Source: Nitrosopumilus sp. (GTDB taxonomy: Archaea > Thermoproteota > Nitrososphaeria > Nitrososphaerales > Nitrosopumilaceae). Taken from it: a stretch of DNA of 64,000 nucleotides. The notes under the pieces are model-generated. The model made no database searches. It worked only from the letters and a program-made list of their open reading frames with translations, and was not told where the DNA came from. Location: positions 1,056,001 to 1,120,000 of the forward strand of contig OZ241981.1 of assembly GCA_965204345.1 (NCBI GenBank), given 5' to 3'. This document shows, piece by piece, positions 5,367 through 9,259 of the stretch (position 1 is the first letter of the stretch; each line of letters starts with the position of its first letter). The position numbers and the translations under genes are program-made.

Positions 5367-6011
5367 GGCAAGACTGTAAATCATTCTACGATATATCGCT
5401 GGCTGGTCAAATATACTGATATGATATCCAAACACACAGACGCCATAACCCCAATGGTGTCTAACAGATGGAGAACTGATGAACTGCATGCCAAGTTTAG
5501 CGGTATGCTAAAATGGGTCTATACCATGATGGATGATGAAACAAGATTCATGATTGCACAGCAAATATCCGATAAGAAATATACTGAAAACATAAGACCA
5601 ATATTTAGGATGTCAGAAAGGCAGGCAGGCATGATTCCTCATACTTTGATCTCAGATTCAGCCCCAAACTTCCATGATGCATGGAAGGCAGAATGGAGGC
5701 AAAGAAATTCAGACAGAAAATTGACTTCCCATGTTCGTCATACCCACATAGCAAGAGACATGAACAATAACAAGATGGAGCGTCTTAACGGAACCATGAG
5801 GGATTGGGAGACGGTTAGACGTGGACTGAAAAAAGAGGACGGTTCAATGTTCAGGCAATTTAGAATATACTATAACTTTATCAAAAATCACAGTGGCATA
5901 AATGGCAAGATGTCTGCTGAAGAATCCCTGATTTTCGTATCCGGTAATAACAAGCAGCTCACACTAATGCAAAACGCAAGTTTGGAGAGGAGTAGAAATG
6001 TCGGGCTTTAG
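5367..6011 (+). pseudogene. 5'-truncated IS6-family DDE transposase
   Basis: The frame opens after TAA at 5364-5366 with GKTVNHSTIYRWL (HTH), then WRTDE, LISD and NNNKMERLNG DDE motifs, and YYNF. The N-terminus is missing. Confidence 0.85.
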
Positions 6012-6450: not shown

Positions 6451-7194
6451 TTAGATTTCAACATTCTCTACTTTGTACGACCCATAATCTAATCGATAAT
6501 ACTTGTCTTTGATTGACAACCATCTAGTTTGAGAGGAATTAGAAGTGGTTTGCTTTATCCATACAGCATATGCAAAAAAATCTGCAAGTTGCAGTATTGG
6601 TGATGTTTTGGGATCTCCATTTTCTACATGACCTCGTATATTATCAAGCTTCTTGTAATGCCTAAACTGCAAAATTTCTTTTAATCCTTTGATGGTTCGT
6701 TCTGTCTTTTTTCTAGCCTTTTTGTTAAATTTCTCATAAATTGCCCTGCCTTCAGCATCATGCTCTTCAAGAAAATCTTGGAATCTCTCCAGCAGTATCA
6801 AGATAGCATATGCTTTGGGGTCTGCTGACATACCATATTTTGTACAGTGACTGTCTAGATTTATTGTAACTGACAAAAGATGACAGTTTGATTTTTTGAT
6901 AAGTTCAAACATATCATTGGCTAGCTGAAATCTTTGAGTGTCTAATAATTTATCATATGGAGGGCGTTTGTTTCTTAATGGATGATAATGAATCTTGAAA
7001 TTTTCAGGTAGTATTGTCTTTGAAAAATATCTGTTACTTATGGAGTTAATTTCATTATTGAGTTTTATTTTTAATATATCATCTACTATGATCCCAGCTA
7101 GAGTGAAAAATTTAGAACTTCCATCTATTACTTTATTATGTTTGTCTAAATAATCCCCTGCATCTCCACTTTCATCAATATACAAGTAATACAC
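6451..7194 (-). CDS. DUF3800 domain protein (RNase H-like fold)
   Basis: N-terminal YLYIDESGD, F(T)LAGII, IHYH, and C-terminal LQLADFFAYAV motifs. Confidence 0.9.
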   Translation of the reverse strand: MYYLYIDESGDAGDYLDKHNKVIDGSSKFFTLAGIIVDDILKIKLNNEINSISNRYFSKTILPENFKIHYHPLRNKRPPYDKLLDTQRFQLANDMFELIKKSNCHLLSVTINLDSHCTKYGMSADPKAYAILILLERFQDFLEEHDAEGRAIYEKFNKKARKKTERTIKGLKEILQFRHYKKLDNIRGHVENGDPKTSPILQLADFFAYAVWIKQTTSNSSQTRWLSIKDKYYRLDYGSYKVENVEI

Positions 7195-7702: not shown

Positions 7703-8047
7703 ATGGATTTAGATAAAATACAAAAGGTACAAGATCTGATTGACTCAGGCAGGGGAGACATGGGAAGAAATGAATTTATTTTAAATTCACTTCAAAATGG
7801 AAAGAAACTATACAATACAGATATACTGTATCTCAAGATTCAGACTCAAAAGCTAGATGAGAAGATAGTATCACTGCAACCCTCCAAAAAGAAGCCAAAA
7901 AGAGAGCCTGCATTAAGCGATGATGAGATTGACAAAATTTTAGCAGAACATGACAAAAAATATGCACAAAAGAAGAAAATCCCCCAAGAACCAATGCCTA
8001 AAAATACAGTTAGAGCCAAAATAAAGAATTTCTTTTCAAGAAACTAG
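7703..8047 (+). CDS. hypothetical protein
   Basis: Clean 114-aa ORF; the N-terminal LIDSGRGDMGRNEFILNSL pattern is seen in thaumarchaeal hypotheticals. Confidence 0.7.
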   Translation: MDLDKIQKVQDLIDSGRGDMGRNEFILNSLQNGKKLYNTDILYLKIQTQKLDEKIVSLQPSKKKPKREPALSDDEIDKILAEHDKKYAQKKKIPQEPMPKNTVRAKIKNFFSRN

Positions 8048-8049
8048 AT

Positions 8050-8156
8050 GTAATGTAATATCAATTTCTTTTTTCTTGTTGTACCCAAACAGTATCATCT
8101 CGTACCGGTGCCGCCACGTAGTAATGTAATATCAATTTCTTTTTTCTTGTTGTACC
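8050..8156. repeat. 36-bp perfect direct repeat flanking a 35-bp unique insert (CRISPR-like single unit)
   Basis: GTAATGTAATATCAATTTCTTTTTTCTTGTTGTACC at 8050-8085 and 8121-8156; insert CAAACAGTATCATCTCGTACCGGTGCCGCCACGTA. Confidence 0.9.
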
Positions 8157-8347
8157 AGCAATAATCTCTGCCTTGCTTGGTTACCCCTTGGCTTTGTTCT
8201 AAGAGCCATTCCACAACAGGGACAGTTGGTGCCATCCCAATGTATGAAAATTTCACAAGAGGTGCAACGCTTTTGGCCAGATCTGTACCTTGTCTCTCCA
8301 ACCTTTTTTAGTGCTCTATATCTTGTGCAGATTCCACGACAGGGCAT
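8132..8347 (-). CDS. thaumarchaeal Cys-rich Zn-binding small protein
   Basis: CxGICxRY...GQKRCxxCEIFIxW.G..CPCCG..LRTKPR; paralog at 38785-39255. Confidence 0.85.
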   Translation of the reverse strand: MPCRGICTRYRALKKVGETRYRSGQKRCTSCEIFIHWDGTNCPCCGMALRTKPRGNQARQRLLLVQQEKRN

Positions 8348-8386: not shown

Positions 8387-9259
8387 TTATCTTTTTTTGA
8401 GCCAGTCAGACAAAATCTTGTTTGCCATCTGATCAGGATTCACATTGTTTTTGCTTGCATGTTTTTTTAATTTTCTTGCAGCACCCTTTGTCAACTCAAG
8501 TTTGATTTTTTGTTGCAGCATGCGGGATTTTGCAATTTTTAATAATTTTTTATGGGATGACTTTGGACTGCGAGCCAATACACGCAGGTATTCTTTTCGG
8601 AGCTTTATGTCCAATGGGGCTATTTTTTGTATAATGTTTTCAATTTTTTGGATGTTGGAGACTATTTGGTATAGTTTGGTGATATCATCACGAGAAATTT
8701 CTTGTGGGACATACTGTCTTAATCTATCTGGAACCGCTGCAAATCCAAGGTATTTCTTTAGGGTCTGGGATGAAATTCCAAGGGATTGTGCGGCCTTTGA
8801 CTTGCCAGTTTTTTCAGTCAAGAAGACACATGCAGCAGTCATATCTCTGGTATTCATCTTGTTTCTGTGCAGGTTTTCGACTACCGATGCTGCCTTTGCA
8901 TCCTCAAGATCATACTTTGAGGAGTTAGTTAATAGCAATACGGGAATTTTCTTTGCCCTCAGCCTCTTGAGAGCTGCCAGCCTTCTTTGGCCGGACATCA
9001 GGAGATAGGAATTTTTTGCTTCCTTTTGGACCATTGGAGGATTTTGCAATCCCTCATTTTTGATAGAGCGTGCAAGCTCGGCAATCCCTTCTTTGTCTAG
9101 TTTTCTGGCCTGAGCCTGCCTCCATACTTTGATGTATTTGATTGGAATCTCAGTTAGCCTGTAATTGATCTTAGAATTGTAACGTTTAGCCACGCTAACT
9201 TGCGGGATTGATTTTTGATAAAACATGCTAGCTGTAATTAGTTGACAAAAAACAGACAT
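8387..9259 (-). CDS. ParB/Spo0J-like protein
   Basis: LARSIKNEGLQNPPMV, SGQRRLAA and VENLHR ParB motifs, plus an HTH (AAQSLGIS). True start probably further downstream. Confidence 0.85.
   Translation of the reverse strand: MSVFCQLITASMFYQKSIPQVSVAKRYNSKINYRLTEIPIKYIKVWRQAQARKLDKEGIAELARSIKNEGLQNPPMVQKEAKNSYLLMSGQRRLAALKRLRAKKIPVLLLTNSSKYDLEDAKAASVVENLHRNKMNTRDMTAACVFLTEKTGKSKAAQSLGISSQTLKKYLGFAAVPDRLRQYVPQEISRDDITKLYQIVSNIQKIENIIQKIAPLDIKLRKEYLRVLARSPKSSHKKLLKIAKSRMLQQKIKLELTKGAARKLKKHASKNNVNPDQMANKILSDWLKKR

Follow-up and report, generated by a model that had tools for sequence, protein, structure and literature searches.

Locus structure and gene context

The window considered here is a stretch of 64,000 nucleotides corresponding to positions 1056001-1120000 of contig C1 in genome G000. 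It contains two convergent genes, encoding proteins of 114 and 71 amino acids, and at their 3' ends two copies of a 36-bp sequence that are 100% identical, start 71 nucleotides apart and enclose a 35-bp insert (Table 1). Sequence comparison and base counts reproduce the composition given in the original prediction, with a GC content of 9/36 (0.25) for the duplicated 36-mer and 19/35 (0.54) for the insert, the value for the contig being 38.7%. When up to three mismatches are allowed, the 36-mer is found twice and the 35-mer only once in the window, as had been claimed for the insert, and zero occurrences of either are expected (100 shuffles). No further copy of the 36-mer or the 35-mer was observed in the 2.12-Mb genome with up to eight substitutions allowed.

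The left copy begins past the stop codon of gene 7703-8047 and the right copy holds the end of gene 8132-8347, that is, the last codons and the TGA stop noticed originally, and thus both genes are intact. In particular, gene 8132-8347 is intact because the duplication has kept its 3' end. The duplicated 36-mer does not have the ATTGAAAC end, and so the earlier remark that the repeat lacks a typical CRISPR-type end holds. One minus-strand frame of the insert reads TWRHRYEMILF; these 11 residues are too few for assignment to a family.

The neighbourhood of the unit contains a fragment of a DDE transposase gene (5421-6011), a DUF3800 gene (6451-7194) and a ParB-like gene. Of the ParB-like gene region, the 3' part (8393-8700) has a second copy with 96% identity at C1:1003868-1004177. 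No integrase was observed among the neighbouring genes examined.

Table 1. Features of the window unit (window positions, first seven rows), the unit in cas1, and inserts with a second copy in the chromosome (positions on C1)
Feature	Position	Strand	Remarks
Left copy of the duplicated 36-bp target	8050..8085		ordinary chromosome, not a CRISPR repeat; single homologue in G009
35-bp insert, candidate ectopic spacer	8086..8120		unique in the genome; not present at the G009 orthologous site
Right copy of the duplicated target	8121..8156		supplies gene 8132-8347 with its functional 3' end, the last 7 codons plus TGA
Left flank GAT	8047..8049	+	G at -3, T at -1; then GT at +1/+2 and AA at +3/+4; partial mimic of GCT|GT
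Right flank AGC	8157..8159	-	minus strand reads GCT| (G at -3, C at -2, T at -1), matching the leader-end motif in full
71-aa cysteine-rich gene	8132..8347	-	no Pfam match; orthologous sequence in G009
Convergent 114-aa gene	7703..8047	+	no Pfam match; stop 2 nt before the left copy; gene untouched by the unit
Unit in cas1, 38/34/38	G000:C1:1888134-1888243 (L002 18134-18243)		two TAA stops
Insert 330574	copy at 1275229		34/36 identical
Insert 500922	copy at 964098		30/32 identical
Insert 1385280	copy at 174508		33/34 identical
Insert 1947301	copy at 1288999		30/30 identical
Native off-register insert	copy at 1209418		32/32 identical

Presence in independent samples

The stretch was found in metagenome runs from four studies, most of them labelled as sponge metagenomes. 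The host is a sponge-associated archaeon; it encodes an archaeal AmoA (E = 2e-116) and is therefore an ammonia-oxidising archaeon. Two of the runs, X1 and X2, come from two studies that are distinct from the one matching the assembly at 0.99. Each of them yields a contig of 95 nucleotides that covers positions 8056-8150 (the tail of one repeat, the whole insert and the head of the other repeat) with 0 differences. The depth of this contig is 12.5 in X1, where the flanks have 14 and 8.8, and 267.1 in X2, where they have 298 and 257. Both runs carry SNPs relative to the window at positions 7940, 8029, 8312 and elsewhere, and thus represent another strain. No contig of the four runs skips the insert, although contigs drop rare variants and a rare empty allele is possible. 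In place of the raw reads proposed originally, contigs assembled independently from X1 and X2 have the insert and both junctions at flank-like depth. The window unit is not an artefact, and it is fixed.

A class of units with the same geometry

Contig C1 was scanned for non-tandem direct repeats with at least 28 of 30 matching positions at every period from 40 to 200. In 5-bp bins of the period, 24 events fall at 70-74, six at 75-79 and four at 65-69; the remaining bins contain 0-2 events each, except for a bump at 145-154. Among simple direct-repeat events there are 31 with periods 69-76 versus two at 65-68, two at 77-100 and six at 40-64. Addition of locus 486377, which had been masked by clustering, brings the number of loci to 32. 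They represent 27 non-redundant units with periods of 69-76 and the mode at 72. Hence the scan for similar duplications suggested in the original prediction added 26 non-redundant units of the same geometry.

The bump at 145-154 was rejected as a part of this class, since it is produced by coding domain repeats. Periods of 144-150 bp (C1 48980, 63765, 745164, 947808, 1127656, and others) reflect repeated domains of about 50 residues encoded in several large genes.

In every unit, a unique and otherwise ordinary chromosomal stretch of about 35-39 bp is duplicated around an unrelated insert of about 33-37 bp. The exact duplications measure 31-42 bp and the inserts 30-38 nucleotides, most of those in the 20 exact units being 35-38 and 33-37, respectively, and the 36-bp duplication and the 35-bp insert of the window lie within these ranges. 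No ectopic unit on C1 has more than one insert. The inserts of the 20 exact units are unrelated, they have no shared termini, and BLAST of the inserts revealed no family. A transposon or MITE generating target-site duplications does not fit, as the inserts share neither sequence nor terminal inverted repeats.

Four units are present in two or three copies inside larger duplicated segments, and these units are therefore older than the duplications. For instance, the identical units 1406775, 1410373 and 1413971 of C1 are 3598 bp apart, which implies a tandem triplication of about 3.6 kb after integration. A tRNA-Ser(CGA) gene reaches with its 3' end into the target of the unit at C1:486377-486486, and the right-hand copy keeps the tRNA intact.

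Empty sites

The original prediction expected relatives with a single 36-bp copy and no insert, and one was found. In G009, from the same genus and about 79% identical over the aligned stretch, the locus of the orthologous convergent genes contains the target only once and lacks the insert.

Four paralogous copies of the region of unit 162808 within G000 align with it with a clean gap of 72 nucleotides exactly at the unit, and several more paralogues have the same empty site as judged by coordinates. The region itself (C1:162208-163518, with about nine paralogues, e.g. C1:1701832, C1:302861, C7:2520) is a multi-copy element with an ORF of 567-686 codons and 72-93% identity between copies. It is probably an insertion sequence. 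One copy of this element carries the unit in frame and is read through.

For the unit in cas1, the Cas1 orthologue of G086 serves as the empty site. At unit 754439, G086 lacks about 63 nucleotides, in a region of low complexity where the alignment is ambiguous. For unit 1974847, both flanks are matched in relatives and the middle is too divergent to be judged, and for unit 1546947 there is no DNA homologue in the 25 relatives searched.

Units within genes

The effect of the units on coding regions was analysed for all 27 units by removing each unit in silico and considering ATG-started ORFs of at least 200 amino acids. The period is divisible by three in all six units situated well inside such ORFs versus 9/21 others (one-sided Fisher p = 0.017). 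This in-frame bias inside genes is a signature of selection. Five of the six in-gene units are read through in frame, within open frames of 686, 313, 528, 899 and 1101 amino acids, adding 23-25 residues to the proteins. Unit 1974847 is situated at or just upstream of the start of a gene of 1014 codons.

The sixth in-gene unit lies in cas1. Read in one frame, Cas1 of G000 aligns end to end with the 328-residue Cas1 of G086, except for the insertion of the unit. The insertion reads VIKIKPYQKHYA-LQ*DLI*SSSII-VIKIKPYQKHYA, which is the duplicated target around an insert with two stops. With cas1 broken, the activity cannot be current.

Sources of the inserts

Comparison of 28 ectopic inserts with the genome revealed a second chromosomal copy for four of them, and one of the five inserts of the native array has such a copy as well (Table 1). 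In this respect the inserts behave as captured spacers. No consistent PAM is seen at the five self protospacers. For two of the five, the match to the protospacer reaches into the seemingly duplicated bases, by 4+5 nucleotides in unit 1947301 and by 4+1 in the native off-register event (1886549). The lengths of duplications and inserts thus scatter in part because the boundaries are ambiguous. The overlap of the spacer end with the target end at 1947301 is far above chance, and microhomology may help off-target integration.

The insert of the window produced 0 exact matches in viral_contigs and metagenome_contigs, by scans that miss diverged protospacers, and three other ectopic inserts produced 0 viral matches in an exact-match scan. 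The only BLAST match of the window insert to phage records has 20 nucleotides and E = 4, which is the chance level. With up to three mismatches it occurs in 0/150 other genomes of the genus; in the original prediction, native occurrence in relatives would have spoken against integration, and the insert is missing from all 150. Thus neither a protospacer nor a PAM for the window insert was found in the searches of the genome, viral, metagenome, phage and genus sequences. The insert is probably a prespacer of foreign origin.

The resident type I-B locus

There is a single match to cas1 in G000, at C1:1887727-1888668, and it contains two in-frame TAA codons. It is about 820 kb away from the window, which itself has no cas1, and for this gene the original description holds. 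Next to the genes cas4, cas2 and the split cas1 (C1:1886747-1888701) there is a leader with a small, degenerate array, which comprises six repeats and five inserts with periods 72, 68, 70, 72 and 72. The repeat is GTTTCAATCTTTATAATTTTAGAATTCTATTCAG, its reverse complement ends with ATTGAAAC, and its length is 34 nucleotides as delimited here.

In seven relatives with orthologous cas1, the arrays consist of 48-98 repeats of 36-37 nucleotides ending with GATTGAAAC, and the spacers are 34-39 nucleotides long with the mode at 35. The sum of repeat and spacer in these relatives is therefore about 71-73, and the scattered units have this same period. They agree with the ruler of the I-B family and not exactly with the degenerate local array and its 34-nucleotide repeat. 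The original prediction suggested looking for cas1 with fitting repeat and spacer lengths; the genome indeed has cas1, cas2 and cas4, and the ruler fits via the arrays of relatives.

The relative G086 has a complete type I-B system, with a 553-residue gene product without a Pfam match in the cas8b position, cas7, cas5, cas3, cas6b, cas1, cas2, cas4 and an array. In G000, whose genome is 99.74% complete, there are no matches for PF01905, PF05107, PF09704 and PF03787, nor for Cas3 of G086. Cas6b is represented by a frame of 131 residues containing only the C-terminal domain. Thus the I-B locus of G000 is a relic with six repeats, no cas7, cas5 or cas3 found, a truncated cas6b and a split cas1.

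An off-register event is seen inside the native array at C1:1886549-1886660 (L002 16549-16660), where a duplication of 40 bp surrounds a 32-bp insert. The duplication spans 13 nucleotides of an old spacer and 27 nucleotides of the repeat, and the insert is a perfect copy of C1:1209418-1209449.

Sequence pattern at the junctions

The 40 junctions of the 20 exact units were each read from outside to inside; below, a vertical bar marks the junction. Position -3 is G in 25 of the 40 junctions (binomial p = 1.8e-9 with a background of 0.19), position -2 is C in 16/40 and position +2 is T in 23/40, with an A-rich stretch next. G at -3 is present on both sides in eight units, on one side in nine and on neither in three.

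A positional weight matrix derived from the ectopic junctions only assigns the score 7.15 to the native leader-repeat junction GAGGCT|CTGAATAGAA, which corresponds to the 99.99th percentile among 200,000 positions drawn at random from the genome. The leaders of G000 and the seven relatives end with GCT| in five of eight arrays, ACT| in two and ACA| in one, and six of the eight repeats start with GT. The match of the edge motif to the native leader-repeat junction argues that the ectopic sites mimic the junction of leader end and repeat start, on both strands and about 36 bp apart. Similarity of the targets to the native repeat over the whole length was ruled out (mean number of matches 14.9 versus 14.8 in the null set, p = 0.35).

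The junctions of the window unit are GAT|GT on the left and, on the minus strand, GCT|GG on the right. The leave-one-out score of the right junction is 3.48 versus the null mean of -2.38. The left junction scores poorly, with -2.2, below the null mean plus one standard deviation.

Candidate mechanism

The window unit is very probably the result of one full-site spacer integration by the resident type I-B Cas1-Cas2, together with Cas4, at a non-CRISPR site. The original prediction described it as a possible natural footprint of off-target Cas1 integration, and this reading of the sequences is strongly supported by the geometry, the genome-wide class, the junction motif, the empty sites and the self-derived copies. 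The window unit fits the class in every tested feature save a traceable protospacer.

Mechanistically, the integrase would attack twice in a staggered manner, at junction-like sequences separated by about 36 bp (GAT|GT on one strand, GCT|GG on the other). Then a prespacer of about 35 bp would be ligated, and gap repair would duplicate the 36-bp target. Since the target spans the gap between the convergent genes and the last codons of one of them, both genes would stay intact, and the insertion would be near-neutral and could become fixed. The event is one of at least 27 independent ones in this genome, one of which landed in cas1 and introduced two stop codons there. The geometry, the genome-wide class, the motif, the self-derived inserts, the empty sites, the occurrence in independent samples and the broken cas1 are observed; the resident Cas1-Cas2 as the enzyme, the order of events and the near-neutrality are what we infer.

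The involvement of the resident enzyme is consistent with cas4, cas2 and cas1 situated beside the array, and with a cas1 that is of full length apart from the unit. On the other hand, several observations count against it: no protospacer or PAM found for the window insert by the searches above, no similarity between targets and repeat, the variable length of duplications, the native repeat of 34 nucleotides, the poor score of the left junction, the broken cas1, and one unit-like locus in G002, a genome with no cas1 match.

Alternative explanations

One alternative is that the units were written by some other Cas1-Cas2, belonging to a virus, a plasmid or a lost element and acting in trans. This would agree with the broken resident cas1, with the tyrosine integrase gene that adjoins the cas remnant, a hint of mobile DNA, and with the patchy distribution of cas1, found in 52 of the 121 genomes sampled from the genus, in some of them in several copies. 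However, the genome has only one cas1 match, and the junction motif matches the leader-repeat junction of the resident array at the 99.99th percentile. The period also fits this I-B family, and an off-register event of the same geometry lies inside the resident array. We consider action in trans very unlikely.

A mechanism without Cas proteins, such as local tandem duplication or insertion of filler DNA associated with repair, seems very unlikely. The period is fixed at 69-76 at 27 sites with nearly zero background at other periods, and we know of no repair process that gives such a fixed period. Moreover, the period equals the sum of repeat and spacer in the family, and the symmetric GCT|GT motif at the edges is that of the CRISPR leader-repeat junction. 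The feature that resembles microhomology-mediated repair is the overlap of spacer and target ends, 4+5 nucleotides at 1947301 and 4+1 in the native off-register event.

It is highly improbable that the unit is a working or nascent mini-CRISPR array yielding a guide RNA, the other half of the original prediction. It does have the architecture of repeat, spacer and repeat. However, the 36-mer is unlike the family repeat and lacks the ATTGAAAC handle, no unit has grown past one insert, only the C-terminal domain of cas6b remains, and no cas7, cas5 or cas3 was found. With one insert per unit, targets unlike the CRISPR repeat, no interference genes found, truncated cas6b and broken cas1, this part of the prediction is not supported.

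The original prediction also mentioned an attL/attR scar of an almost wholly deleted integrative element, for which the mobile-looking surroundings (the DDE transposase fragment, the DUF3800 and ParB-like genes) could speak; it is rejected, with hardly any probability left, by the plain uninterrupted single site in G009, with nothing between the copies, by the 26 other units of the same geometry and unrelated sequence, and by the lack of an integrase beside the window unit. An assembly, adapter or sequencing artefact is equally remote, as the insert and both junctions occur with 0 differences and at flank depth in contigs from two other studies, whose runs carry strain SNPs elsewhere in the region, and as the units show the in-frame bias inside genes and all inserts are different.

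Comparison with known integration systems

Integration by Cas1-Cas2 away from CRISPR arrays has been described in several systems. Off-target "non-canonical" integration and "neo-CRISPR" loci were reported for E. coli by Nivala, Shipman and Church (2018, Nat Microbiol), as described in 10.1101/148544. These off-target integrations are rare events in cells overproducing Cas1-Cas2 according to PMC7054753, and are tied to IHF-like motifs according to PMC9456107. Evidence for natural off-target events, from two other species, is termed "circumstantial" in 10.1101/148544. Like the E. coli neo-CRISPR loci, as presented in these sources and PMC6698737, the units considered here are situated at chromosomal non-CRISPR sites, involve duplication of a repeat-length target and occur at sites that resemble the native integration context. 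Unlike the rare E. coli events under overproduction, as these sources present them, a single archaeal I-B genome contains 27 fixed natural events versus five inserts in the native array, some units are read through inside genes, and one is in cas1 itself.

The Cas1-Cas2 integrase of Pyrococcus furiosus in vitro integrates into non-CRISPR DNA that shares features with repeats, as described in PMC6698737. In both cases, off-target sites reveal the elements recognized by the integrase. However, according to the same source, the P. furiosus experiments were done in vitro on plasmids, whereas the sites considered here are natural and chromosomal, and what they share is a short motif of leader end and repeat start on either side, not similarity over the whole repeat.

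In the I-B system of Haloarcula hispanica, as described in PMC4872114, the duplication begins where the leader meets the repeat and the position of the distal cut is determined by the distance from anchor motifs midway along the repeat; alteration of these motifs leads to aberrant duplication sizes. The subtype is the same as here, but the ectopic targets do not have the internal motifs of the repeat. By analogy, the missing mid-repeat motifs would explain the variable length of the duplications. Ectopic acquisition in Streptococcus thermophilus, where spacers are inserted away from the leader-proximal repeat, occurs inside the array at genuine repeats, as described in PMC7999890 and PMC5338259, whereas the units of G000 are in ordinary genes and intergenic DNA.

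A full-text search of a limited library revealed no natural genome with many such units and no cas1 interrupted by one. The mechanism is of a known kind. To the extent of the literature searched, three features are new, namely the natural scale, the junction motif on both sides and the self-inactivation of cas1. In the sources cited above, off-target integration comes from overexpression and in vitro work and is circumstantial in nature, whereas here there are dozens of fixed natural events.

Implications

The units provide a target-site logo for the type I-B integrase of an uncultivated archaeon without an experiment. They also demonstrate the cost of the adaptation machinery, namely insertions into genes and self-inactivation of cas1, and bear on the origin of new arrays, although here none has gone past one spacer. 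In practical terms, such units will be missed or misread by annotators and CRISPR finders, and those in frame add about 24 residues to proteins.

A tentative scenario, which we hold to be possible although somewhat doubtful, is that after the loss of interference the orphan cas1-cas2-cas4 acted as a free-running integrase. It would have placed at least 27 spacers in the chromosome, five times the content of its own array, and made five in-frame additions to proteins, until it was stopped by the hit in cas1. The order of events in this scenario, with the loss of interference first and the cas1 hit last, is a supposition. If the scenario is true, this genome naturally records the minimal target code used by an archaeal I-B integrase, namely the motif GCT|GT of leader end and repeat start on each of the two strands with a distance of about 36 bp, and the machinery of CRISPR adaptation can act as a significant mutagen from within the cell.

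Units in related genomes

Two stretches of 800 kb were scanned in relatives. In the stretch from G086, which has an intact I-B system, three events were found at periods 69-76. One of them is a mini-array of two genuine CRISPR repeats, another is a clean 36/35/36 unit, and the third is imperfect. In G002, which has no cas1 match, there is one unit-like event in 800 kb versus 11 in the first 800 kb of G000. Further, 16-kb pieces around the cas loci contain one isolated unit each in G086 and G014 (35/34 and 39/34). Thus the phenomenon exists in relatives, and compared with the parts of two relatives that were scanned, G000 stands out as an outlier.

Mini-arrays and solitary repeat units borne by viruses and plasmids have one spacer between two repeats, are situated away from cas genes and use the genuine repeat of the host system. 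They differ from the window unit in exactly this respect, as a mini-array has a genuine CRISPR repeat (e.g. G086:C1:43914) and the repeat of the window is duplicated host sequence. The mini-array of G086 (G086:C1:43914-44020) consists of two repeats and one spacer; its genuine 37-nucleotide repeat belongs to a family unlike that of the main array of G086, and it is far from the cas locus.

The GC content varies widely within this one genus, being 52% in G002 (first 800 kb), 33% in G086 and 39% in G000.
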